Shown here piece by piece: positions 22,727-39,617 of a stretch of DNA of 64,000 nt. The notes under the pieces were generated by a model. That model did not search any database. It saw only the letters and a program-made list of their open reading frames with translations, and was not told the DNA's origin. The stretch covers positions 1-64,000 of the IMG/VR virus record IMGVR_UViG_3300022562_001969; one strand, written 5' to 3'. The DNA is from a virus. Made by a program: the position numbers and the translations under genes. Every line of letters starts with the position of its first letter. Position 1 is the stretch's first letter.

Positions 22727-22881
22727 AGATCATAGTCAGAAGCAGAGCGGGCGGCTATTCTGGCCCGCTGCGTGGTTAAACGGCGGGGTGGCTTTGGCTT
22801 ATTTCGTAGTTTCAATGTGCCCCCTAAAGGGCAACGGGATCGCAGAAAATTTATTCAGCAATCACAGGAGGATACAGGCGC

Positions 22882-23838
22882 GTGAGTTTTGAGATCAGGC
22901 GGAGATCGAAGCCGGTGGGCGTTTTCTCGGACAACGGGACGTTGGGGCTGGATGTTTATTTGAGGCACATTGGCGGCCACGGTTATTTGAGCCGGGCCGG
23001 GGAATTGGCGCTATTTAACCAACTGGATGAGGCTTATCCGGAGCGGCTGGCCGCTAAACCGGGGGCCAGTTTCCCGGTCAACTGCCGGCCGATTGTCGCT
23101 GAAATCTCCGGCTATTATTACAAATTGGTGGTGGCGGTGGCCAACGGCTACAAAGGGGGCCACACCCTCCCTTTCGCCGATCTCATCCAGGCCGGCAATG
23201 AGGGCCTGCTGCGGGCGATCTGGCGCTTTGATCAATCTCGCGGCCATCGCTTTTCCACCTACGCCACCTATTGGATCAGGCAGGCTGTTCTCCGGGCCAT
23301 CCCGGAGCAGGGTCGCGCCATCCGGCTGCCGGTTTACCAATATAGCCGCTGGGTGCAGATCTGCCAATTGATAGATAATGGGGATCGGGATCAGGAGCCG
23401 GATTGGGCGGAAATCGCCCGGAAAGTCAGCACCGCCGAGGCCCCGGTTACACCGGGGGGGGCGGTCCAGACCTTCCACCTGGGGCTGCGGTCGTTGACAG
23501 TCTCGCTGGATGAGCAATGGTACCCGGAGGAGGAGGAGACCGATAAATACGCGACAATTGCCGCCGAAACGCCGGGCGCGGAAGCGCTGATGGAAAAGAT
23601 GGACGCCGCCGAAGTCATTAACCGGGCTTTAGATAAGCTGCCGGCCCGGCTGGCCAAAATCATCAGCCTCCGCTTTGGCCTGTCCGGGGACGCCCCGCTG
23701 ATCCTGGAAGATATTGCCAAAAAGTTTGGTCTGACCCGGGAGCGGGTCCGCCAACTGGAAAAGGAGGCGCTGGTGATGCTGCGCCAAAATGGCGACCTGG
23801 CCTGTTTGGTCGCGAAAAGTGAGACTGAAGATGGCTGA
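22882..23838 (+). CDS. RNA polymerase sigma70-family factor
   Basis: DLIQAGNEGLLRAIWRFD, RFSTYATYWIRQAV, region 4 LEDIAKKFGLTRERVRQLE. Confidence 0.92.
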   Translation: MSFEIRRRSKPVGVFSDNGTLGLDVYLRHIGGHGYLSRAGELALFNQLDEAYPERLAAKPGASFPVNCRPIVAEISGYYYKLVVAVANGYKGGHTLPFADLIQAGNEGLLRAIWRFDQSRGHRFSTYATYWIRQAVLRAIPEQGRAIRLPVYQYSRWVQICQLIDNGDRDQEPDWAEIARKVSTAEAPVTPGGAVQTFHLGLRSLTVSLDEQWYPEEEETDKYATIAAETPGAEALMEKMDAAEVINRALDKLPARLAKIISLRFGLSGDAPLILEDIAKKFGLTRERVRQLEKEALVMLRQNGDLACLVAKSETEDG

Positions 23839-23856
23839 CGAAATCGGTTTCAATCG

Positions 23857-23893
23857 GTTTCAATCTCTCATTCGAGATAATCGGCCTTTGAAC
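23857..23893 (-). CRISPR. isolated perfect copy of the 37-bp array-1 repeat
   Basis: Identical to the repeats at 25478-26098; adjacent partial GTTTCAATC duplication at 23847. Confidence 0.9.
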
Positions 23894-24038
23894 GCGGCGT
23901 AGGCCGGGGCCGGCGCTCGCAAGGGAATGACGCCCGGCCGCTCGGCCGCGCCAGGCGCTAACCCCAACCAGACCAGGAGGCCCAACAAGCCCAGCAGCCC
24001 CCATTTGATATATGACAAAATATGGCTATAATTCATCT

Positions 24039-24123
24039 TAGTCTTTACTCCTCTCTTTATACGTCAGGAGTTTGGATAATGAGTGAAGCCCCCCGCCTAT
24101 CAGTAAAGCGGGGGACTTTTTTT
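24039..24123 (+). ncRNA. candidate small RNA with own promoter and intrinsic terminator
   Basis: TTGATA(24005)-16-TATAAT(24027); ACTCCT/AGGAGT stem; CCCCCGC/GCGGGGG stem plus T7. Confidence 0.45.
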
Positions 24124-24146
24124 ATGATCTGATTGGTAACCCCCTA

Positions 24147-24431
24147 TTAAGGATTTCTGTATATATCGTGATGCCCAATTTTTCTGAAAACAAAGGTAAT
24201 TTCGCCAGTTTCGTCGTCTTCTTCCCGGTGAAATGTAAAGACATACCCAAGTGTTATATGGCCTTCCCAGATATCAGAATGTCCCTTCATTGGCTTAATC
24301 CGTAATGAGGGATGATAAGGATGGAAAGGCTGTTCTTTGAATAACTTAAAGCTTTTTTTTGCTTGGTCTCGAATGTCAGTCGGCAATTGCTCAAAACACT
24401 TGCGAAAATGCCGGGTTACACGATATTTCAT
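24147..24431 (-). CDS. RelE/ParE-superfamily toxin
   Basis: TRHFRKCFEQLP...HPSLRIKPMKG..IWEGHI...IGHHDIY. Confidence 0.82.
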   Translation of the reverse strand: MKYRVTRHFRKCFEQLPTDIRDQAKKSFKLFKEQPFHPYHPSLRIKPMKGHSDIWEGHITLGYVFTFHREEDDETGEITFVFRKIGHHDIYRNP

Positions 24432-24441
24432 TATTGATAGG

Positions 24442-24765
24442 TTATAATGTCTCCAGGAAACCATCGAGCGAGTCAAAATCTTCGTACTGTCCGGTTTGTA
24501 AGTCGCGTTCAACTTCGCGTTCCCCGGCTTGCCATTCCGGTGTCCAGAACCAGGCCTGGGTTTGATCGGTTTCAACCGTTATCAAGCTGGAGGATGTATA
24601 TATATTGGCGATCAATTGGCCGGTCATTACATTATTTCGCACATCAAATATATAAAAACAGGCCGGCGGTTGTCCCCATTCTTCTTCGCCAGGATGACTA
24701 TGAATAAAAATAGCGGCTGATCCTTCTTCACTTGAAGCCAGCGTTTTGGTGTTACTTTCAATCAT
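24442..24765 (-). CDS. antitoxin-like protein
   Basis: C-terminal QAWFWTPEWQAGEREVERDL motif typical of antitoxins upstream of this RelE type. Confidence 0.7.
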   Translation of the reverse strand: MIESNTKTLASSEEGSAAIFIHSHPGEEEWGQPPACFYIFDVRNNVMTGQLIANIYTSSSLITVETDQTQAWFWTPEWQAGEREVERDLQTGQYEDFDSLDGFLETL

Positions 24766-25441
24766 GGTTGTTCCCCTGTATAAATGTTTTGACTTGATTT
24801 TCAATAAACCTGTCAACCTCGGTGATCCGGTCTGTTGGCTTAAATTCCCCTGTTTGTACCCACTTAAAAATAGCCTCGATAAAGAATTGTTTTGTATTCC
24901 CTAGATATGACTCTATTTTGATCTCTATTTGCGGCGAACCATCATCAGTGTGGGGCATAACAAATCTAAGCCCCCCCCCCAGAATTGGCCTGCCAAATAT
25001 GGATAATGACGCTTCAGGCTGTCTTAAGCGAGTGACCCATAATTCTTGAAATGCATGGTCACCTGAAGCTTGATAAAGATAACGAATAGATGCGTCACAA
25101 GATAAAATCTGACGCGATCCTGTCCAGGTAGACCGGAAAGCTTGAATAACCATATCGACGATTCTGGAAAATTCATCCGGTATATAGGTCGGATTAGGGT
25201 TAGCGATTATGAGTAACTGGCCGATAGGAGCATCAATATTGGCCCCAATTTTTATTTGAAGCGGCGGCGTCTTTTTGAGAATCAGTATCCCATTATCAGC
25301 TGTTAGCTCACCTCTATCATAATCAACGCCAGCGTTCAATATCGCTTGTTGAAAGGCGATCAATCGTTGTTTATTTATTTCAGGTGGGGGGGATAAAACA
25401 TAATTAATTCCTAAATGTAACAAAACCCCTTCATCATGCAT
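24758..25441 (-). CDS. hypothetical protein, TIGR04255-like, first gene of the TA operon
   Basis: 227 aa, AT-rich, coupled to antitoxin; family by resemblance only. Confidence 0.55.
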   Translation of the reverse strand: MHDEGVLLHLGINYVLSPPPEINKQRLIAFQQAILNAGVDYDRGELTADNGILILKKTPPLQIKIGANIDAPIGQLLIIANPNPTYIPDEFSRIVDMVIQAFRSTWTGSRQILSCDASIRYLYQASGDHAFQELWVTRLRQPEASLSIFGRPILGGGLRFVMPHTDDGSPQIEIKIESYLGNTKQFFIEAIFKWVQTGEFKPTDRITEVDRFIENQVKTFIQGNNHD

Positions 25442-25477
25442 TCCTTAAACCCCTTTCTGTAAAAGTTTTGAAGATGA

Positions 25478-26098
25478 GTTTCAATCTCTCATTCGAGATA
25501 ATCGGCCTTTGAACCTGACGCAAAAAGCGGCGCAAAAAATGGCGCAGATTGAGTTTCAATCTCTCATTCGAGATAATCGGCCTTTGAACAGCATCTAACC
25601 ACATCTAGCAATAGGCAAAAAAGAGGTTTCAATCTCTCATTCGAGATAATCGGCCTTTGAACATAAAAATAGTATACCATAAATTTGCCGAGTGTGCAGT
25701 TTCAATCTCTCATTCGAGATAATCGGCCTTTGAACTGATGTTAAGATTGTGGGGACGGTGGCCAGCTTGTTGTTTCAATCTCTCATTCGAGATAATCGGC
25801 CTTTGAACCAGATAATGGCCAAGGTTGCCAAGTATTACGGTGTGTTTCAATCTCTCATTCGAGATAATCGGCCTTTGAACAGGACAAATGAGCGGAATTG
25901 TAGAGGTTGTAAACGGGTTTCAATCTCTCATTCGAGATAATCGGCCTTTGAACAGTGACGATCCACTAGCAGGCGCAACTTTTTAAGGAGTTTCAATCTC
26001 TCATTCGAGATAATCGGCCTTTGAACGCGGGCGCAATTGGATGAGGCCATCAATGAGGCGGGTTTCAATCTCTCATTCGAGATAATCGGCCTTTGAAC
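25478..26098 (-). CRISPR. CRISPR array 1: 9 identical 37-bp repeats, 8 spacers of 35-38 bp (I-D/III-like)
   Basis: Minus-strand repeat GTTCAAAGGCCGATTATCTCGAATGAGAGATTGAAAC ends in the ATTGAAAC handle. Confidence 0.97.
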
Positions 26099-26133
26099 AG
26101 CGGTCGTCCATCGTCTATCGTCGCCGGTCGTCG

Positions 26134-26586
26134 TCAGTTCCGCAGGCGCTTAATCCGGTCCATCTTGCGGGTCATGAGGCCGCTCAAGCGATAAATGGCC
26201 TTAACCACGATAGCCTGACGGCTGAGGCCGAGCAGCAGGCCGTCGTGATAGCTGGAAAGGTCGCCGATGTGGGAGGCGATGGCCGGGCTGTGGAAGCCGG
26301 GCCGGGGGTAGTCGTGGGCGAAGCGGTTGCGGATGTGGTTAATGATCGTCAGGTCGTCAAAGTCGGCCTGGTCTATCAGGCCGGTGCAGAGGGCCAGCCG
26401 GCGGCGGGTGACCGCCCGTTCCAGGAGGGCCGTTTTCTGGGTTTTGCTGCCCAGGAGGGCCACGTCCAGGAGTCGGTAGAGGACCTGGTCCAGGTGGGCC
26501 GCGCCGCGAATGGCGATCTCGGAATCGATGACGGTCTTGATTTGGGGATTGGTTTGGGGCTGTGCTAAAATAGATACAGCTTGCAT
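26134..26586 (-). CDS. HEPN-superfamily (MtlR-like) protein
   Basis: AAHLDQVL...GLID...INHIRNRFAHD, an RxxxxH motif. Confidence 0.7.
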   Translation of the reverse strand: MQAVSILAQPQTNPQIKTVIDSEIAIRGAAHLDQVLYRLLDVALLGSKTQKTALLERAVTRRRLALCTGLIDQADFDDLTIINHIRNRFAHDYPRPGFHSPAIASHIGDLSSYHDGLLLGLSRQAIVVKAIYRLSGLMTRKMDRIKRLRN

Positions 26587-26697
26587 GGTAAGTTCACTCC
26601 TTACTGTGCTTGTTAGAGTTCCGTCGGTGGTATCAACACCGGCGGAATTCGTCATTTAATTGACCTTCATTATAAATCTGTTTGGGGAAAAGGTCAA
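26587..26697 (-). promoter_or_regulatory. repeated promoter/leader cassette, copy 2
   Basis: TTGACC-17-TATAAT, GGTCAA inverted repeat, hairpin, CACAGTAAGGAG RBS. Confidence 0.72.
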
Positions 26698-26710
26698 AAA
26701 GCGGGGGGGA

Positions 26711-27205: not shown

Positions 27206-27234
27206 GTTTTCCCCACAGGCGTGGGGGTGAACCG
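27206..27234 (+). CRISPR. solitary type I-E-like repeat abutting an RBS
   Basis: GTTTTCCCCACAGGCGTGGGGGTGAACCG followed directly by GGAGGAGCT-ATG. Confidence 0.85.
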
Positions 27235-27243
27235 GGAGGAGCT

Positions 27244-27996
27244 ATGGCAAAGCGTAGGGTTAAGTGCCCGCAGTGCGGGTATAGACACATCATCAACATT
27301 CCCAGTCGGAAAGCGATGACGGTGGGCGTGCGAGCCAAACGGATCACGGCCAACCAGTTTGAATACACCCTAAACGGTCCCGCCGAAATCTCGGATGACG
27401 CCAGATTTAGCACGGTGGCTGACGACCTGGTCCTGTCCGGCGCGTTTGGCGGCGCGTTGGGAGCCGTGGCGGGGGGCGCGGTGGCTGTCTTCGCGCCGGA
27501 GTACGCCCTGCACGGGGCCGGCGTGGGCATGAGCGCCGGGGTAGCCCTGGCCTGGGGCTGGTTGTGCGCGGAACATAACCAACGGCTGAAACGGGTGTTG
27601 CCCTGGTTCGTTGAGCAGCGGCAAAACTGGAAACGGCCCGAGCTGGGGGACGATGGCGAGATCAGGCTGACGGTAGATCATCTCCATCGGGACAGCTACA
27701 GCGAGCAAGGCCGCTCCATCGCCCTCCTGGGGACCCTACCGGTCGATGTGGAGCGCTTCCGGGCCTGGGCGCAAGGGGCCATCCGGGGCGATAGCCTGGC
27801 CATCAAACACTGGACGGGAGCCGAACGGCCTTTCAGCCGGGATGAGTATGATCGCCTGCTGCTCAAAATGAGGGCGGCCAATATAGTGACCAATCTGCCG
27901 GGGAAGGGCAATACCCTGACCAATCCCGGCAAGCACGCTCTGAAACGTATCCTGGCCGAGACCCCCTCCCCTACCCCGGCTGAGGAGCGTGCGTGA
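27244..27996 (+). CDS. zinc-ribbon, membrane and winged-helix-like protein
   Basis: CPQCG N-terminus, two Gly/Ala-rich TM segments. Confidence 0.65.
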   Translation: MAKRRVKCPQCGYRHIINIPSRKAMTVGVRAKRITANQFEYTLNGPAEISDDARFSTVADDLVLSGAFGGALGAVAGGAVAVFAPEYALHGAGVGMSAGVALAWGWLCAEHNQRLKRVLPWFVEQRQNWKRPELGDDGEIRLTVDHLHRDSYSEQGRSIALLGTLPVDVERFRAWAQGAIRGDSLAIKHWTGAERPFSRDEYDRLLLKMRAANIVTNLPGKGNTLTNPGKHALKRILAETPSPTPAEERA

Positions 27997-29661: not shown

Positions 29662-29836
29662 CCCCACCAGGCGCAGCCGGTCATCGAGCGGCAGATTATC
29701 ATGGTGGTGGGGCCGGGTCAGTCGCGGGGGGAGATGTGGCGGCAGTTAAGCGCGAGCTATGACGATAGACGACGGTAGACGATAGACGATAGACGGCCGG
29801 TGACCGTTTAGCTATCGTCCATCGTCCATCGTCGAA

Positions 29837-30125: not shown

Positions 30126-30533
30126 TCAAGGTTGTGAGGTAGGGTCTTGAGGACCTTGGATGATCATTTGTTCACCGCTCTCTGCTTCGGCCAGAGCGCG
30201 AAGCAACCGTTCCTGGAAACGCCGGCTATCTTCCTGGTCTACATCCGACTTTTTGAACATTTTTATATAAAACGCCTTGTAGGAACATTGCCAATGGCTA
30301 CCAACATAATAAACCCGGTGACGGCCAATTCTGATTTTGCGAACATTTTCCAAACCTGGCGGCATCCGCTTCAGCTTTTTATCGGAGGCGTCTAACGACC
30401 CCCTCCGCTCAGAGTTGGCCTCGTCGGCAAAACCAAAGAGCCTTTTTTCGATCATTGTCTTATCTCTGCTATTGGCGCGTTGAAGCTGGTCCAGTTGTTT
30501 ATCGACCGTCTTATTTATCGAGATCGAGCACAC
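30126..30533 (-). CDS. RelE-like toxin
   Basis: KKLK...VRKIRIGRHRVYY...FKKSD. Confidence 0.6.
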   Translation of the reverse strand: MCSISINKTVDKQLDQLQRANSRDKTMIEKRLFGFADEANSERRGSLDASDKKLKRMPPGLENVRKIRIGRHRVYYVGSHWQCSYKAFYIKMFKKSDVDQEDSRRFQERLLRALAEAESGEQMIIQGPQDPTSQP

Positions 30534-31017
30534 GATACGTCTCCTGATCTTTAAAGGCTTTTTCTAATTGGATCAGTAAGGTATCATCCCGGATCAGGCG
30601 CTCATCTTCTAACGCATCAAGATCGATCCCCCGGATATTGAATTGAGCCATCTTCCGCAAGAAAGAAATGGCGCTATTGATCTGGGCGAAGGATAGATTA
30701 GGGAATTCTCCCTGTAATTCGTCATAATCTATAAGGCCGTCCAGGGCCTCCACAAATTCGTAGAGGGAGACTGATTGCCCGTCGTTCCCGACCAATACCG
30801 GGAGAAATCCAAGGTCTGGGTTCAGGTGAATATAGCCGCCGGTGGCTTTATTCCACGCCTCAAAAGAACTAAGGACGCTTGTACGGGTAGTTAGTTTCAG
30901 GCTGTCCCTTAGAAACCGCTCAATCAGGTAATTTGTTTGGCCGGAGGGGCCACTATCCTGAACAATAAAAACAAGTCTGTTCTCAGCCTCGGTTGTTTTG
31001 ACAATAGGATCATTCAT
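30511..31017 (-). CDS. DUF433-like antitoxin
   Basis: NPDLGFLPVLVG...ELQGEFPNLSFAQINSAISF. Confidence 0.65.
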   Translation of the reverse strand: MNDPIVKTTEAENRLVFIVQDSGPSGQTNYLIERFLRDSLKLTTRTSVLSSFEAWNKATGGYIHLNPDLGFLPVLVGNDGQSVSLYEFVEALDGLIDYDELQGEFPNLSFAQINSAISFLRKMAQFNIRGIDLDALEDERLIRDDTLLIQLEKAFKDQETYRVLDLDK

Positions 31018-31549: not shown

Positions 31550-33199
31550 TTATATCTCCAACCGCCCTTGTGTTGGCCCTGCTCTTTCTTCTCTTTGGGC
31601 TTGTTTGAAGGTTCCATAGGCGGGCGGCATTTGTACACTTGCCCCCCCTAACAACGCCTCAATGGTAAGTATCTGAATTTTAGGGTATTTTTGGCCCCAG
31701 GCTACAGCCTCATAAAAACCGGCTGACACCGCCTCCTGGATCATCGGCTGCGTTGGTTCTTCCAGGGTGATAAAAACGCCGATAGCCGCCTTTTCCCGTT
31801 CAACCGTCCCAACCAGATCACGAATATCCCGGCTTGACACCTTGCCGCTCTTGACTTGCGCTAAAACCCGCTTAGGTTTGCCTTTTGCCGTATCAATAAA
31901 GGTGATAACCCCATCGATCCCTTTATCCGCTCCTTTTTTGCCCTTTTTACTGCCCTGGGTCGCTTTGCCCGGTCTGGCCCTAACTAACGACAAGGCCCAC
32001 CATTCAAACTGAAAGCGGTCTTGTTCTGCCAGAAAACGAGCAGAGCCTATTGTTTCAGGCTCGCCCTTGACTTCAAACGTTGTGTCCGGAAAGGCTTCTT
32101 GTAGACGATATTTTTGCAAGGCAATAGATAAATGGGTGATGTCAATACCTATCCACTTTCGGCCTAGTTTTTCAGCGGCTACTATCGCAGTACCACAACC
32201 GCAAAATGGATCAAGGACTACATCACCAGGGTTGCTACTGGCTGAAATGATACGTTCTAGTAAAGGTAAAGGTTTTTGTGTAGGATAACCCAGACGTTCA
32301 GCATCAGAACTTTGCAAAGGATTTATATCAGCCCAAATGTTTGTAATAATTGTTCCTTTTTGTTCGTTCAAAAAACGTTTAAGCGCAGGACGTTTACTAA
32401 AATCATAGGAACCATCTTTGTGACGTGGATAATAAATGCGCCCTTCATCGTGTAACTTTTGCATGGTTTCAGGTTTATAACGCCAACCTTTAGCAGGATA
32501 CGGAAAGCCTAGCCATTCGTACATCATATTGGGTCTAGGATTTGGACTTGTCATATTATCCAAACGATATAAACCGCGTCCATTATTATCATCAAATCGG
32601 TAATTTTTTTGGATATATTCCAAATCATATGGTCCATATTGAACAATAAACAGGTTTTTTTTGGAACGTTTATAAAAAAGAATTATGTCAGCAATATCAG
32701 CAAATTTCGTCTTTGCGTCACTATGGGCTGACTGTCGTTTCCAAATAATTTCATTGCCAAAGTTCTCAGCCCCAAAAATAGTATCAAGGATGACCTTCAA
32801 ATAATGGCTTGCTGTTGGGTCACAATGCAGATATAAGCTACCAGTAGGGTTCAATACCCGATGAAGTTCAACCAATCGACTAGCCATCATAACCAAATAA
32901 GCCATCATTTGGTTAGCGCCAATAAAATCACGCATGGCCCCAATCATCTTACTTATATGATCTGGTGATTCTGTTATCAATTCGTGATAGGTTTCCTCAG
33001 CGGCCGCGTTCCAGTGCCAAGTATCATCAAAAGCCGTTATCTGCGCCTGGCTATCTTGCCCACTTTCATCTTTGAATAAGACATTATAGCTGCGCTTTGA
33101 GTTAAAGGGGGGGTCAAGATAGACTAAATCAATACTTTCATCTGCTATGTAATCACGTAGAATTTGAAGGTTATCGCCATAATAAAGGGTATTTTTCAT
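31550..33199 (-). CDS. N6-adenine/N4-cytosine DNA methyltransferase fused to an Mrr-like endonuclease domain
   Basis: DPPF, YPTQKP, DPFCGCGT; C-terminal DKGIDG...QVKSG. Confidence 0.9.
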   Translation of the reverse strand: MKNTLYYGDNLQILRDYIADESIDLVYLDPPFNSKRSYNVLFKDESGQDSQAQITAFDDTWHWNAAAEETYHELITESPDHISKMIGAMRDFIGANQMMAYLVMMASRLVELHRVLNPTGSLYLHCDPTASHYLKVILDTIFGAENFGNEIIWKRQSAHSDAKTKFADIADIILFYKRSKKNLFIVQYGPYDLEYIQKNYRFDDNNGRGLYRLDNMTSPNPRPNMMYEWLGFPYPAKGWRYKPETMQKLHDEGRIYYPRHKDGSYDFSKRPALKRFLNEQKGTIITNIWADINPLQSSDAERLGYPTQKPLPLLERIISASSNPGDVVLDPFCGCGTAIVAAEKLGRKWIGIDITHLSIALQKYRLQEAFPDTTFEVKGEPETIGSARFLAEQDRFQFEWWALSLVRARPGKATQGSKKGKKGADKGIDGVITFIDTAKGKPKRVLAQVKSGKVSSRDIRDLVGTVEREKAAIGVFITLEEPTQPMIQEAVSAGFYEAVAWGQKYPKIQILTIEALLGGASVQMPPAYGTFKQAQREERAGPTQGRLEI

Positions 33200-33575
33200 T
33201 GGTTGACCACCTGACCAGGCCAGGCTATAACAAATGGCAAGTGAACGGTTCACCATCATGCCCGTGGAGAATACCCTGATTTTATCCGAGTTTGGGATGA
33301 CAGGCAAAAAAGACGGTCGTCCATCGTCCATCGCCCATCGTCGGTTACTTGTTTTCAGGCCAAAAGGGTATATAATTGATTTAGCGACATTTTGGCTTGA
33401 TAGTCTGATCAAGATATAATAGTAAAAGAAGCTCCAACCTCTGACAGGCTATCTGTCCAAAGTGTCGCAACTTGAGAGGTCTGGGGCTTCTTTTTGGTGC
33501 TTCAGGATTTTCCGTGGGAACCACTATATCGCCATACAAGAAAAGTAAGCCAACTTTCAAAGATAGGTTCGCAAG

Positions 33576-35627
33576 ATGACTGAAAGCCGCCAACCTGGTA
33601 GGAATTTTAGGGATGAATTACTTAAGATTTTGTCAGGGATGACCGCTTTGGATGACCCTGACAACCGATATCGGCTATTGGACAAGTTGCCACTAGAGGC
33701 AGTAGCAACCATACGACGCAATTCTGCTAAGGGGACCGACCTATACAATATCGTTCAGGCTGCCGAAGGATGGGGACAATTGACCTCTGGAGAGTGGGCC
33801 TTGGTCGTTATCGCCCAAAACGCCCTATCTCTAGTTAAAGGAACCCACCCCGGTCGTCAGCTAGAGGCTCTTTTAGCTGAAAGGGTTATTCATCAGGCCA
33901 AGCCAGGCCGGCAGATCCCCCTTGATCTGCCAGCGCGAGAGGAGAATTTTATAGACCGTAAGGACGAACTGGTATCTCTACTCACCGAATTACAACCAGG
34001 ACGAGTAGTCACTTTGACTGGGCCGGGGGGCATGGGCAAGACTGCCCTGGCCGCGGAAGCCGTTGGCCAACTGGTGGTTGATCATAAGCCCCCTGAGCGT
34101 TTCCCGGATGGCATCTTCTTTCATAGCTTTTACAACCAACCCCAAGCCGGTTTAGCCCTGGAAAGTCTGGCCCTGGCCTTTGGCGAGGAAGCCAGGCCAA
34201 CGGCCCAGGTAGCGGCACAACGGGCGTTGAGCGGCCGGCAGGCCTTATTGGTGTTGGATGGCGCTGAAGATGCGGATGACTTGGCGGCCGTGTTAGCGGT
34301 GCGCGGGGGGTGTGGGGTTTTAATAACCAGCCGTAATCGGGGCGATGCGCCGGCCGTGTTGCAAGACCTGGCGCCCCTCAAACAGCAAGACGCCCTGGAC
34401 TTATTACAACGCTGGGCTGAAGCGCAGCTTGATGACCAGGCGGCGGCCATTGCCATCTGCGAACTGGTGGGGAGGCTGCCGCTGGCGGTGCGTCTGGTAG
34501 GGCGGTATCTGCGTGAGACCGGGGAGACGGCCAGCGAGTATCTAGCCTGGTTACAAGAAACCCCGTTAGAGGCCCTGAACCAGGGGCGGCGACGCGAAGA
34601 AAGTATACCTGTCTTACTTGAGCGCAGTCTAAAGCAGGTCAGTGAGGCGGCGCGGCAAGTGTTGGCGGTGGCCGGCCGGCTGGCGCTGGCCCCGCTGCAA
34701 CAAGAGGTGATGGGGGCCGCTTTGGCAGCCGAAGCGCGTGAGGTGAGACAGTGGTTAGGAGAATTGGTGCGCTATGGCTTGCTGAGCCGGGACAAAGGGC
34801 GTTATGCCATCAGTCACGCCCTCATTCACACCTACGCCAGTGAGCGGCTCAATGTGGCGGAGGAGATGGTCGAGCGGTTGGTGGCTTTCTATGTCGCTTT
34901 GGCTGAACACTTTAGCCAGCAAGGATTGGCAGGCTACCAGGCGCTTGATGGGGAGCGGCCTCACCTGCTGCGCTTGATTGCAGGCTGCGCGAAAGGAGAT
35001 GATTGGCTGGGGGTTCGCAAGCTGGTCTGGGCCATTGATGGTTATTTGTCAATTCAGGGTCACGCCAGCGAACGACAAACTGCCCTAGCGACAGGGCTAA
35101 CAGCCGCCCAACAACTGGGCGACCGCCAAGATGAAGGGGCATTTTTAGGCAGCCTGGGGACCGCCTACTACGACCAGGGGGAGCTGGACAAAGCCATCGC
35201 CCATTCTCAGCAAGCCCTGGTCATCCACCGCGAGATTGGCTACCGCCAGGGGGAGGCTGCTGTTTTAGGCTACCTGGGAACCGCCTACAGCATCCAGGGG
35301 GAGCTGGCCAAAGGCATCGACCATTATCAGCAAGCCCTGGTCATCCACCGCGAGATTGGCTACCGCCAGGGGGAGGCTTATAATTTAGGCATCCTGGGTC
35401 TCGCCTACCGCGCCCAGGGGGAGAGGGCCAAAGCCAGAGAATACTTAGCCCAGGCGCTCACTATTTTTGAGGCGATCAAATCGCCCCAGGCAGACGCAAT
35501 TCGTGAACAGTTGACTATGCTGACTATGTTAGGCCGCCTCCATATACTCTTAGCAATGTGTCAGGCCATCTACGAGAAAGGATTGATGAGGCAGCTTTTG
35601 CCGCTTTTCAAAAGGCTTATTCACTAA
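33576..35627 (+). CDS. NLR-like STAND protein: effector-associated-like N-domain, NB-ARC, TPR repeats
   Basis: GPGGMGKT, LLVLDGAE, LITSR, GRLPLAV; 40-aa TPR repeats. Confidence 0.88.
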   Translation: MTESRQPGRNFRDELLKILSGMTALDDPDNRYRLLDKLPLEAVATIRRNSAKGTDLYNIVQAAEGWGQLTSGEWALVVIAQNALSLVKGTHPGRQLEALLAERVIHQAKPGRQIPLDLPAREENFIDRKDELVSLLTELQPGRVVTLTGPGGMGKTALAAEAVGQLVVDHKPPERFPDGIFFHSFYNQPQAGLALESLALAFGEEARPTAQVAAQRALSGRQALLVLDGAEDADDLAAVLAVRGGCGVLITSRNRGDAPAVLQDLAPLKQQDALDLLQRWAEAQLDDQAAAIAICELVGRLPLAVRLVGRYLRETGETASEYLAWLQETPLEALNQGRRREESIPVLLERSLKQVSEAARQVLAVAGRLALAPLQQEVMGAALAAEAREVRQWLGELVRYGLLSRDKGRYAISHALIHTYASERLNVAEEMVERLVAFYVALAEHFSQQGLAGYQALDGERPHLLRLIAGCAKGDDWLGVRKLVWAIDGYLSIQGHASERQTALATGLTAAQQLGDRQDEGAFLGSLGTAYYDQGELDKAIAHSQQALVIHREIGYRQGEAAVLGYLGTAYSIQGELAKGIDHYQQALVIHREIGYRQGEAYNLGILGLAYRAQGERAKAREYLAQALTIFEAIKSPQADAIREQLTMLTMLGRLHILLAMCQAIYEKGLMRQLLPLFKRLIH

Positions 35628-35929: not shown

Positions 35930-36128
35930 TTGGACGATGGACGACCGGCGGCGACTTAAGACTGCGGCCGCCCATCGTCCATCGTCCATCGTCGCCAAGG
36001 CGAAGCGACCACCGACGACACAACACCGCCGCCCATCGTCCATCGTCCATCGTCGCCAAGGCGAAGCGACCACCGACGACACAACACCGCCGCCCGCCGT
36101 CCATCGTCTATCGTCCATCGTCCGTCGT
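35930..36128. repeat. heptamer REP/STRR-like tract (GACGATG/CATCGTC)
   Basis: Also near 17.1, 26.1, 26.8, 29.8, 31.5, 33.3, 38.0-38.46 and 39.3 kb. Confidence 0.8.
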
Positions 36129-37049
36129 CAGCCCCCGGTACGCCCGGGCCCGGGCCTCATCCCGGCCGCGCAGATAGACCGAAGTCGTGGCGATGTCCGC
36201 ATGGCCCAATTGGTCGCGCACCTTGTCCAGGGAGACGCCGGCTTCGAGGGCCAGCAAAGCCGAGGTGTGGCGCAGGGCGTGAAAGTAAGCCCGGGGCAAG
36301 CCGGCCGCCCTGGCCCGGCGCTTGAACAGTTGGCTCACCCCGGAGGCGGTCAGGCCGGGCCCCGGGCGGCCCCAGCGCCAGGCCGGGAAGACATGAGCGG
36401 GCCGGTGGCCACCCTCGGCCAGATAACGTTGCCAGGCCCACAAATCCCCTTTGACCGCCAAATTAAAATAGACCACCCGCCCCCGGCGCGTCTTGGCCGT
36501 CTCCGCCGCCACCTCGGCGGCCAGCTCGGCCAGGCGCAGTTGCTCCCAGCGCAGGGCGGCCACTTCCCCGGCCCGGCAGCCGGTGACCAGGGCAAAATGG
36601 ACCAGGGCCAGGTCGCGCAGCTCACGCCCCTCGCCGGCGGCGGCCGCCCGGCGCAACTGGGCCAGCAGGCGCTCCACTTCGGCCCGGCTGAGGGCCACCG
36701 GCGGCAGGTGGGGCCGGGGCGGCAAGAGGCGCAATTGGGCAATTTGCCGGGTCGGGTTGCGGTTGGCCTCAATGATCTCTAATTGTTCCAAAAAGTTGAA
36801 AAATGCGCGCAGGTGGGTATAATAGGTGCGCACCGTCACCTCTCCACCGGCGGTGGAGTCTATCCAGCCCATTACCTGACCGGCCGTGACCGGCCAGGCC
36901 GGGCCGATGTAGTCGGCGAAGCGGCTTAAGATATTGGTGTAGTTCTGTAGCGTCTTCGGCCGCCACGAACGTCTCTTGAGAGTGATAAAACCTTTAATGT
37001 GCCCTCCCAGAATGGTATCCGGGAGGGACACAGAAGGCGGCGTAGCCAT
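36108..37049 (-). CDS. tyrosine recombinase/integrase 2 (paralog of 10531-11538)
   Basis: TGCRAGE, AKT, FHALRH, LGHADIATTSVY. Confidence 0.92.
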   Translation of the reverse strand: MATPPSVSLPDTILGGHIKGFITLKRRSWRPKTLQNYTNILSRFADYIGPAWPVTAGQVMGWIDSTAGGEVTVRTYYTHLRAFFNFLEQLEIIEANRNPTRQIAQLRLLPPRPHLPPVALSRAEVERLLAQLRRAAAAGEGRELRDLALVHFALVTGCRAGEVAALRWEQLRLAELAAEVAAETAKTRRGRVVYFNLAVKGDLWAWQRYLAEGGHRPAHVFPAWRWGRPGPGLTASGVSQLFKRRARAAGLPRAYFHALRHTSALLALEAGVSLDKVRDQLGHADIATTSVYLRGRDEARARAYRGLTTDDGR

Positions 37050-37152: not shown

Positions 37153-37222
37153 CAAGCCTGAAGGCTTGGACTCCTCTATTCCGGAGTCGAAACCGGTTCA
37201 CCCCCACGTCTGTGGGGAATAC
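37153..37222 (-). CRISPR. solitary type I-E-like repeat (37194-37222) plus 25-nt spacer-like segment and hairpin
   Basis: GTATTCCCCACAGACGTGGGGGTGAACCG, then GTTTCGACTCCGGAATAGAGGAGTC, then CAAGCC-TTCA-GGCTTG. Confidence 0.8.
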
Positions 37223-37982: not shown

Positions 37983-38277
37983 GGACGATAGACGATGGAC
38001 GATGGACGGCGGGCGGCGGTTTGACGGGCGGCGGTCGTCCATCGTCGGTCGTCGCTTCGCCTTGACGACGATAGACGATGGACGGCGGTTTGACGGTCGT
38101 CGGTCGTCCATCGTCGGTCGTCACTTTGCCTTGGCGACGCTAGACGATAGACGATAGACCGCGGTTTGACGGTCGTCTATCGTCCATCGTCGGTCGTCAC
38201 TTCGCCTTGGCGACGCTAGACGATAGACGATGGATGGCTGTATGGCATCGTCGGTCGTCGGTCGTCGGTCGTCGTTC
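37983..38277. repeat. heptamer REP/STRR-like inverted tract
   Basis: GACGATAGACGATGGACG and its complement repeated. Confidence 0.8.
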
Positions 38278-38495: not shown

Positions 38496-38854
38496 ATTTC
38501 AATCCACGCCCCCCGTGAGGGGAGCGACTTCGGTGAAGGAAAAAATTCCTTAACCGATGGGGTTTCAATCCACGCCCCCCGCGAGGGGAGCGACATAAAA
38601 ACAGGCTTCGCTTTGCGGGCTATTTCAATCCACGCCCCCCGCGAGGGGAGCGACTTGGCCGGTCAAGGTGATCCGCCAACCGGTTGCGGTTTCAATCCAC
38701 GCCCCCCGCGAGGGGAGCGACTTGCTGAAACGTTCGTGGTAGACTGTTTCAGTTTGTTTCAATCCACGCCCCCCACAAGGGGAGCGACGCGACCAGCTCA
38801 TCACTATCCAATTCAAAAAGCGTTTCAATCCACGCCCCCCACAAGGGGAGCGAC
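38496..38854 (-). CRISPR. CRISPR array 2: type I-C-like, 6 repeats of 33 bp, spacers of 33, 27, 34, 34, 33 bp
   Basis: Minus-strand repeat GTCGCTCCCCTCGCGGGGGGCGTGGATTGAAAC with variants. Confidence 0.95.
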
Positions 38855-39020
38855 GGCAACATCTGGGTATACCCAGATTATACATAATATATATTGTGGC
38901 GCCTTTTTTGTCAATCGGACAACCGGCTCAATATTGCTCGCTAAATGTTCTTTTTTGGGGTGGTTAAGGTACAAAATAGGCGCGAACCCTCCGGGCAATG
39001 GCTGGGCGCTTGGGGTTCGC
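38855..39020 (-). promoter_or_regulatory. type I-C leader
   Basis: AT-rich segment with GCGAACC...GGTTCGC inverted motif typical of I-C leaders. Confidence 0.65.
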
Positions 39021-39041: not shown

Positions 39042-39124
39042 CGGTTCACCCCCACGCCTGTGGGGAATACTCGTCCATCGTCCATCGTCGCGAAGCGGTT
39101 CACCCCCCCGCCTGTGGGGAATAC
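39042..39124 (-). CRISPR. type I-E-like mini-array: two 29-bp repeats, one 25-bp spacer
   Basis: Repeats at 39042-39070 and 39096-39124; spacer 39071-39095. Confidence 0.9.
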
Positions 39125-39311
39125 GCTCCAAAACGTTATAAAGTTTTAATGTTACAACCGTTCGCTAGCTTAGAACACGGATATGGGGAGGGTAACGGAT
39201 TTTCGACCTGGCTATAAGTAATCCGTTACCTTCTGCCAATCCGCTGTTCTCAAGCTAACCGTGCAATAGCAGCAACGCCCAAACGGTCGTCCATCGTCCA
39301 TCGTCAGCCGT

Positions 39312-39617
39312 CTATCGTCCACCGTCCATCGTCACCCCCGGGCAGCCTTCGACAAGCTCAGGCTGCTGCGGTCGTCCATCGTCGGTCGTCCATCGTCGGT
39401 CGTCCATCGTCGCCCCCCGGGCGGCCAGCGCCGTATTAAGCGCCTTGAGTTCCGCCTCAAGATCACCTATTTTTTTTTGCAAAGCGGTTTCGTTGGCGGC
39501 CATCTTGGCCAACCGCTTCTCCAGGGTAATATTCAGGAGAAGCGCCTGGCTTAATAGTGAGCCCCAGCGTTGGCCGAGGGTATCGACCAGCTCCAAAATT
39601 TGCTGTTCGGTCATCAT
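39312..39617 (-). CDS. small coiled-coil protein (3' end runs into a REP tract)
   Basis: Coupled to the upstream ORF. Confidence 0.5.
   Translation of the reverse strand: MMTEQQILELVDTLGQRWGSLLSQALLLNITLEKRLAKMAANETALQKKIGDLEAELKALNTALAARGATMDDRRWTTDDGRPQQPELVEGCPGVTMDGGR

Follow-up and report, generated by a model that had tools for sequence, protein, structure and literature searches.

A putative toxin-antitoxin operon between identical repeats of a phage CRISPR array looks more like captured cargo than a CRISPR-controlled switch

In this study, we analyzed a three-gene operon that lies between a CRISPR array, here called array 1, and one further perfect copy of its 37-nt repeat in a phage genome from IMG/VR (virus record IMGVR_UViG_3300022562_001969). 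The window under analysis is the first 64 kb of this 86,114-bp record, which is rated complete and has 144-bp direct terminal repeats. The interval between the array and the additional repeat measures 1584 bp and holds a putative toxin-antitoxin (TA) operon that has the same orientation as the array, has the lowest G+C content in the phage and has a CRISPR repeat in the place where its native relatives have a promoter. The locus resembles captured cargo deprived of its own promoter more closely than it does a proven CRISPR-controlled switch. We consider it somewhat probable that the interval was captured through recombination at or near CRISPR repeats, and that any cutting of its transcript by the CRISPR endonuclease Cas6 would be a by-product of that capture.

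The repeats and the expression of the enclosed operon

The initial annotation of this region had reported a perfect 37-bp repeat at 23857-23893, 1584 bp from array 1, and a pattern search allowing up to three mismatches bore this out. The window contains 10 copies of the repeat, every one of them perfect, where none would be expected by chance, and the complete genome holds the same ten and no further copies. The principal features are as follows, with open reading frame abbreviated as ORF, untranslated region as UTR and ribosome-binding site as RBS.

26099-26697, minus strand: upstream unit of a 35-nt linker, orf150 and a promoter
25478-26098, minus strand: array 1, with nine copies of the 37-nt repeat, all perfect, and eight spacers of 35-38 nt, each unique
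25442-25477, minus strand: 5' UTR of ORF A, 36 nt, with a G-rich RBS
25441-24758, minus strand: ORF A, 227 aa, conserved first gene of the cassette
24765-24442, minus strand: ORF B, 107 aa, putative modular antitoxin, its start overlapping the end of ORF A by 8 nt
24431-24147, minus strand: ORF C, 94 aa, predicted RelE/YoeB/YafQ-fold toxin
23857-23893, minus strand: the lone repeat, a perfect copy of the 37-nt CRISPR repeat at the trailer side of array 1
23847-23856, minus strand: 10-nt partial repeat copy, the handle end (GTTTCAATCG on the plus strand), abutting the lone repeat

Array 1 is a CRISPR array by the usual definition of at least three near-identical direct repeats of 23-50 nt with unique spacers of similar length. 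The reverse complement of its repeat terminates in ATTGAAAC, the usual 8-nt 5' handle of CRISPR RNAs (crRNAs) made by Cas6. The crRNA strand is thus the minus strand, which is also that of ORFs A, B and C, as the initial annotation had stated, and the lone repeat lies on the trailer side. Of the two cas families scanned for, Cas6 (PF01881) and Cas1 (PF01867), neither was found in the complete 86-kb genome, while the controls were positive, and array 1 thus lacks the adjacent Cas6 or Cas1 gene that marks a CRISPR-Cas locus.

Searches for the source of the repeat returned nothing in the collections covered. The exact 37-nt repeat was absent from IMG/VR and from the GTDB genome contigs and JGI metagenome contigs searched, and its 21-nt stem-and-handle half had no match in IMG/VR. 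With up to three mismatches, the repeat was found neither in 401 genomes of one class, that of the Anaerolineae metagenome-assembled genome carrying locus L009 of the cassette family, nor in the three genomes carrying the closest relatives of ORF A. In addition, two spacer 22-mers had no match in IMG/VR, no self-targets of the array 1 spacers were found in the phage, where neither spacers nor pseudo-spacers gave a match beyond the 10-15 nt of chance level, and an Rfam scan of 23500-26700 detected no family.

The interval (23894-25477) had been called a giant spacer, a name that does not suit it, as its 1584 bp compare with the 35-38 nt of the spacers in array 1. That it is a true giant spacer, a 1.58-kb fragment integrated by Cas1-Cas2 with duplication of the repeat, is hardly credible. 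Such an origin would account for the identical direct repeats on both sides of the insert, but the insert is at the trailer end rather than the leader end of the array, is ~44 times as long as the array's spacers and resides in a phage without Cas1, and integration would not be expected to yield the extra 10-nt partial repeat. A further point against it is that integration by Cas1-Cas2 is controlled by a length ruler.

At the inner junction, the first ATG of the operon (25441) follows the last repeat of the array by 36 nt that include the RBS, exactly as first described. Those 36 nt had also been equated with one spacer length, and the likeness to the array's 35-38 nt is real, but the segment is the 5' UTR of the cassette and not a spacer, because the position of its G-rich RBS is the same as in the closest native 5' UTRs. 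The loci of this family in bacterial genomes have TATAAT-like -10 boxes 40-60 nt upstream of the ATG of ORF A; in the phage a CRISPR repeat fills that stretch, and the G-rich RBS of the closest relatives is kept. The junction therefore removed the cassette's own promoter. The initial proposal of a link to CRISPR activity presupposed that the operon has no independent promoter, and our scan, in which promoters and terminators were called as consensus matches, found none between the last repeat and the ATG, the site obtained by hand (~8/12) being below the scan cut-off.

The best minus-strand promoter, TTGACC-17-TATAAT at 26697-26669 (11/12 match), is located upstream of orf150 (150 aa, 26586-26134), whose stop codon is 35 nt from the first repeat. 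The 35-nt linker at this leader side of array 1 is a TCGTCCA heptamer tract rather than a conventional leader. From the promoter at 26697-26669 as far as the cassette, the scan predicts no minus-strand terminator. Since array and operon share a strand, with no promoter of the operon's own, no intervening terminator and a repeat at the -10 position, read-through from the array is the likeliest source of the TA mRNA. Judged by this arrangement of sequence signals, expression of the TA operon probably depends on array read-through, and a cognate Cas6 in the host would be expected to cut the array-TA transcript at its repeats.

The cassette and its relatives in bacterial genomes

The third gene had been named RelE, and its structural model is clearly that of a RelE/YoeB/YafQ-fold protein. 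The AlphaFold2 model of ORF C has a predicted local distance difference test score (pLDDT) of 93, and Foldseek aligned it best to the YoeB/ParE structure 6n90 (template modeling (TM) score 0.72, root-mean-square deviation (rmsd) 2.3), followed by RelE, YafQ and HigB; TM scores were about 0.7 and rmsd values 2.3-2.6 against YoeB/ParE, RelE and YafQ structures. The assignment to RelE itself is less firm, as matches to profile hidden Markov models (HMMs) were weak, at E 0.012 for RelE/StbE and with YafQ matched in 7 of 27 relatives. ORF C retains all the invariant residues of its family. Directly upstream, where an antitoxin gene would be expected, ORF B ends 10 nt before ORF C and encodes a conserved N-terminal domain with a WGQPPA motif, followed by a C-terminal segment specific to RelE-like partners.

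Neither ORF A nor ORF B had a match in PHROGs, Pfam or NCBIfam. The model of ORF A (pLDDT 94) has a tandem fold resembling the TATA-binding protein (TBP), with a Z score of 9.4 to TBP. Its family comprises ~281 clusters at 50% identity, in which every member seen was unannotated. The earlier label "TIGR04255-like" for this gene is refuted, as the TIGR04255 HMM matched neither ORF A, nor 34 relatives and 10 distant relatives, nor any product of a six-frame scan at E values up to 10. A prediction of the complex of ORF A with ORF B scored 0.20, which is below the mark.

Relatives of ORF A were identified at 76 genome loci (L009-L084), mostly in Anaerolineae and other Chloroflexota, and none was found in IMG/VR. 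In 41 of 73 loci, a B-like gene comes directly after the ORF A homolog, and the toxin gene behind the pair is MazF-like in ~33 loci, Doc in locus L031 and RelE-like, resembling ORF C, in four. The B proteins of these loci have the N-terminal WGQPPA domain in common, and their C-terminal segment varies with the toxin family. Such switching of the C-terminus with the type of toxin is the signature of a modular antitoxin and identifies A-B-toxin as a conserved TA architecture of three genes, chiefly from Chloroflexota, for which we found no earlier description. The cassette thereby exposes an architecture in which a TBP-like first gene precedes an antitoxin whose C-terminus appears to be swapped to suit MazF, Doc or RelE-type toxins, and from its gene order and predicted folds the phage copy would act as a type II-like TA module. 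Relatives of ORF A without TA genes occur in Leptospira, Gemmatimonadota and Planctomycetota. At none of the 76 loci did the flanking sequence retrieved, up to 8 kb, contain a CRISPR array.

The outer junction and the origin of the interval

Beyond the three genes, the interval ends in a 253-bp tail (23894-24146) between the stop codon of the toxin gene and the lone repeat, of which no similar copy was found elsewhere in the phage and whose segment 23894-24000 is 76% GC. The tail contains three features.

24090-24123, plus strand: GC hairpin followed by U7, a predicted intrinsic terminator (fold z -3.3)
24005-24032, plus strand: promoter-like TTGATA-16-TATAAT, a convergent element
23860-24036, minus strand: orphan ORF of 58 codons with a GAGGAG RBS and one hydrophobic helix

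The last 11 codons and the stop of the orphan ORF come from the lone repeat, no homologs of it were found, and it is probably truncated or fortuitous. The promoter-like site (11/12) lies within the first codons of the orphan ORF, and an ORF opposed by a plus-strand promoter and a U7 terminator has a layout like that of type I TA modules. The terminator would also stop transcripts of the convergent sigma-factor gene. In IMG/VR and metagenomes, relatives of this flanking gene had at most 43% identity, and the 18 loci in IMG/VR had no array; blastn against the GenBank phage collection gave no match.

Sequencing runs provided evidence on both the position and the reality of the outer junction. A relative with 93-95% identity from one sediment run (X3) has the sigma-factor gene and orf150 and diverges from the phage at 23847 (the loose end, at 23828, was re-aligned by eye). 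In another run, from marine sediment, contigs corresponding to 22800-23885 and 23868-25507 had zero differences from the record and depths of 14.1 and 13.9, with a flank at 12.8. The junctions are thus present in independent contigs and the insert is as abundant as the phage, which argues against an assembly chimera, in which a host segment flanked by the same repeat would have been joined into the phage array by the assembler. Identical flanking repeats do permit such joins, and the contigs from Logan break inside repeats. However, besides the agreement between the depth of the insert and those of its flanks in an independent run, a 37-nt repeat is shorter than standard reads, which therefore span it, and the record closes with terminal repeats. 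We therefore regard a chimera as very improbable.

Another explanation is that the lone repeat is an independent solitary unit, either an RNA anti-CRISPR decoy or part of the unit formed with the small ORF, that it was gained separately from the array and that the TA genes landed between the two. This is unlikely, although several observations speak for it. The phage carries other solitary or mini units of type I-E (27206-27234, 37193-37221 and 39042-39125), viruses commonly carry solitary repeats, which can act as inhibitors of Cas proteins (PMC10651486, PMC11656645), and a distance of 253 bp, with other features in it, separates the lone repeat from the toxin stop codon. Yet it does not stand alone in the sense of having no full or partial copy within 100 bp, since the 10-nt partial copy abuts it, the nearest full copy being 1584 bp away. 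Its 100% identity to the repeats of the array, together with the adjoining partial copy, suggests a truncated array instead. In addition, the consensus scan of 23894-24146 gave no promoter on the sense strand of the lone repeat, whereas reported solitary units often have one immediately upstream (PMC10651486).

A more far-reaching alternative is that the repeats serve as functional punctuation, so that Cas6 of the host frees the TA mRNA, or a crRNA-containing ribonucleoprotein (crRNP) assembled on the handle covers the RBS of ORF A. Translation of ORF B would be coupled to that of ORF A, as their 8-nt overlap suggests, and the balance of toxin and antitoxin would then report the activity of the host's CRISPR-Cas system. 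Much of the anatomy accords with such a coupling. The genes are on the crRNA strand downstream of a repeat ending in the handle, the repeat replaces the native promoter position, no independent promoter lies between repeat and ATG and no terminator is predicted, the repeats are perfect and the genes intact. From the established architecture of crRNPs, the RBS and ATG, at most 40 nt after the handle, fall within the stretch that the Cas7 backbone would cover, and both CRISPR-regulated toxins and crRNA-like regulators of phages are already known. Nevertheless, we consider this coupling quite unlikely. The phage has no Cas6 or Cas1, no cognate host system was found among the genomes searched, the arrangement is a single locus without recurrence, the cassette family has no link to CRISPR elsewhere (0 of 76 loci), and the 5' region of the cassette has no unusual structure (fold z 0.03). 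Nor does a phage gain any obvious benefit by poisoning a host whose CRISPR system is active. Moreover, a clean excision is doubtful in view of what intervenes between toxin gene and 3' repeat, namely an extra ORF, an antisense promoter and a convergent terminator. The suggestion in the initial annotation that Cas6 would process this mRNA is accordingly sound as regards a likely read-through and a predicted cut, but less so as regards release of a discrete message, in a phage that has neither Cas6 nor Cas1 of its own. Nothing in the evidence shows a regulatory design. The strongest form of the idea, in which the TA operon was deliberately wired into a cas-less array, the host's Cas6 or crRNP sets its toxin:antitoxin balance and the phage thereby senses or exploits the CRISPR-Cas system of its host, is distinctly improbable.

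Capture of the interval by repeat-mediated insertion, which the initial annotation had mentioned as an alternative, fits best of the readings considered. We favor it because none of the 76 family loci is near CRISPR, because of the foreign composition of the interval and because of the scars at its junctions. The ORFs of the cassette have the lowest GC content (0.41-0.43) in a comparison with the 78 phage ORFs of at least 100 aa (median 0.56), and are thus foreign and recent; the GC content of array 1 is 0.43, and the cassette may have arrived together with the array. The 10-nt partial repeat, the orphan ORF cut by the lone repeat and the point at which the X3 relative diverges all look like scars of recombination. 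We propose that recombination at or beside CRISPR repeats placed the TA cassette at the trailer end of the array. This could have occurred within the phage, or within a host array from which the phage later acquired the entire low-GC block. That event would have stripped the cassette of its own promoter and left the TA operon as the distal part of an orf150-array-TA transcript, which a cognate Cas6 of the host would cut at the repeats, purely as a by-product. The TA module would then be an ordinary moron of the addiction or abortive-infection type.

Several points weigh against capture as the explanation. The locus is a single instance, no relative showing the pre-insertion state was retrieved, and no donor or host array was found among the genomes and metagenomes searched. 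A purely accidental junction does not predict ten perfect repeats and a 5' UTR of exactly one spacer length, and a coupling to the array that had been selected for would likewise be expected to leave intact genes in a promoterless operon. Finally, the segment of the tail with 76% GC matches neither the phage nor the cassette.

The accessory region and comparison with known systems

The locus is part of an accessory, defense-rich region of a phage whose borrowed repeats represent three CRISPR types. Genes for a STAND NTPase, a methylase-Mrr fusion and a tyrosine integrase are located in the same region, and from the integrase the phage is probably temperate. Two of these genes are defense-type morons beside CRISPR elements: the STAND NTPase (33576-35627) combines EAD8, NB-ARC/NACHT and TPR domains, and a DNA methylase is fused to an Mrr-like nuclease domain at 31550-33412. 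A second cas-less array (38497-38855) has six copies of a type I-C-like repeat, the copy at its low-coordinate end being degenerate, and an AT-rich stretch on its high-coordinate side. The repeats resembling type I-E, which are 29 nt long, form single units and a two-repeat mini-array (27206-27234, 37193-37221 and 39042-39125). The copies at 27206 (plus strand) and 37193 (minus strand) are inverted and bracket a 10-kb block in which the integrase, the methylase-Mrr fusion and the STAND NTPase are all encoded, and the copy at 27206 is directly followed by the RBS and ATG of the ORF at 27244.

Many intergenic junctions of the accessory region are marked by TCGTCCA heptamer tracts, and there are separate tracts of TTGACAA. 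Such tracts are at 26103-26125 and more than 30 other sites (e.g. 29778-29834, 35967-36129, 37984-38275, 39284-39414 and genome positions 80358-85603), and they may be module-boundary or regulatory repeats. In addition, Pfam gave no match for two overlapping minus-strand ORFs at 30126-31017, of 168 and 135 aa; the latter contains the motif RIGRHRVYY, which we take to be RelE/ParE-like, and the two may by their sequence constitute a second TA pair.

Orphan arrays and solitary repeats of phages are a recently recognized layer of counter-defense, and both cas-less CRISPR arrays and solitary repeats occur in viruses (PMC10651486, PMC11656645). The phage resembles carriers of virus mini-arrays and of the RNA anti-CRISPRs termed Racr in bearing host-type repeats as arrays and single units without Cas6 or Cas1. 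It differs from them in having a 1.3-kb protein-coding operon between the array and an identical repeat, and in that no promoter is predicted for its lone repeat and the searches yielded neither a host match nor a spacer target.

Modules of the TA type are often located near CRISPR loci, for reasons that are not known; in this phage the two are physically fused, and the TA operon has lost its promoter to the array. TA loci accumulate on the CRISPR plasmid pSYSA (PMC4963859), and in Clostridioides difficile type I TA modules adjoin CRISPR arrays, including those of prophages (PMC5961336). Our locus shares with the latter the position of a TA module beside an array in phage or prophage DNA; in its tail, a predicted promoter and terminator oppose a small hydrophobic ORF. 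However, the modules of C. difficile are independent convergent transcripts beside the array, whereas the cassette here is a three-gene one encoding proteins (type II-like), enclosed by repeats and promoterless, and the small ORF of its tail has no homologs. No promoterless protein TA operon enclosed by the repeats of a phage array was found in the literature searched.

As a TA module, the cassette resembles RelE, YoeB and YafQ systems and tripartite systems such as toxin-antitoxin-chaperone operons in the fold and size of its toxin, the small upstream antitoxin with a toxin-specific C-terminus, its tight operon and its third conserved gene. In contrast to these systems, that third gene comes first in the operon and has a tandem TBP-like fold of no known family, and the antitoxin's N-terminal domain does not correspond to any known DNA-binding domain. 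Mobile elements that insert into arrays offer a further parallel, as foreign DNA here interrupts an array at a repeat. Tn7-like transposons are reported to target CRISPR repeats (PMC11837452). In contrast to these, no transposase is encoded in the 1.58-kb insert, whose three genes are the TA cassette; transposon ends were not looked for.

A conceptual precedent is CreTA, in which a repeat-flanked RNA reportedly guides Cascade to repress the promoter of a toxin beside the cas genes of the host. The likeness is in the idea that components of CRISPR-Cas could control a toxin; the phage differs in having no Cas6 or Cas1 and a protein toxin with a RelE fold, and no complementarity of a guide to a promoter was found in it. 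If the phage locus is a product of recombination only, it would indicate that CRISPR repeats can serve phages as sites for the uptake or exchange of host cargo. Were the locus functional, it would constitute the first protein TA module whose expression is set by CRISPR RNA processing, and a TA operon wired in this manner would represent a viral, protein-based counterpart of CreTA.

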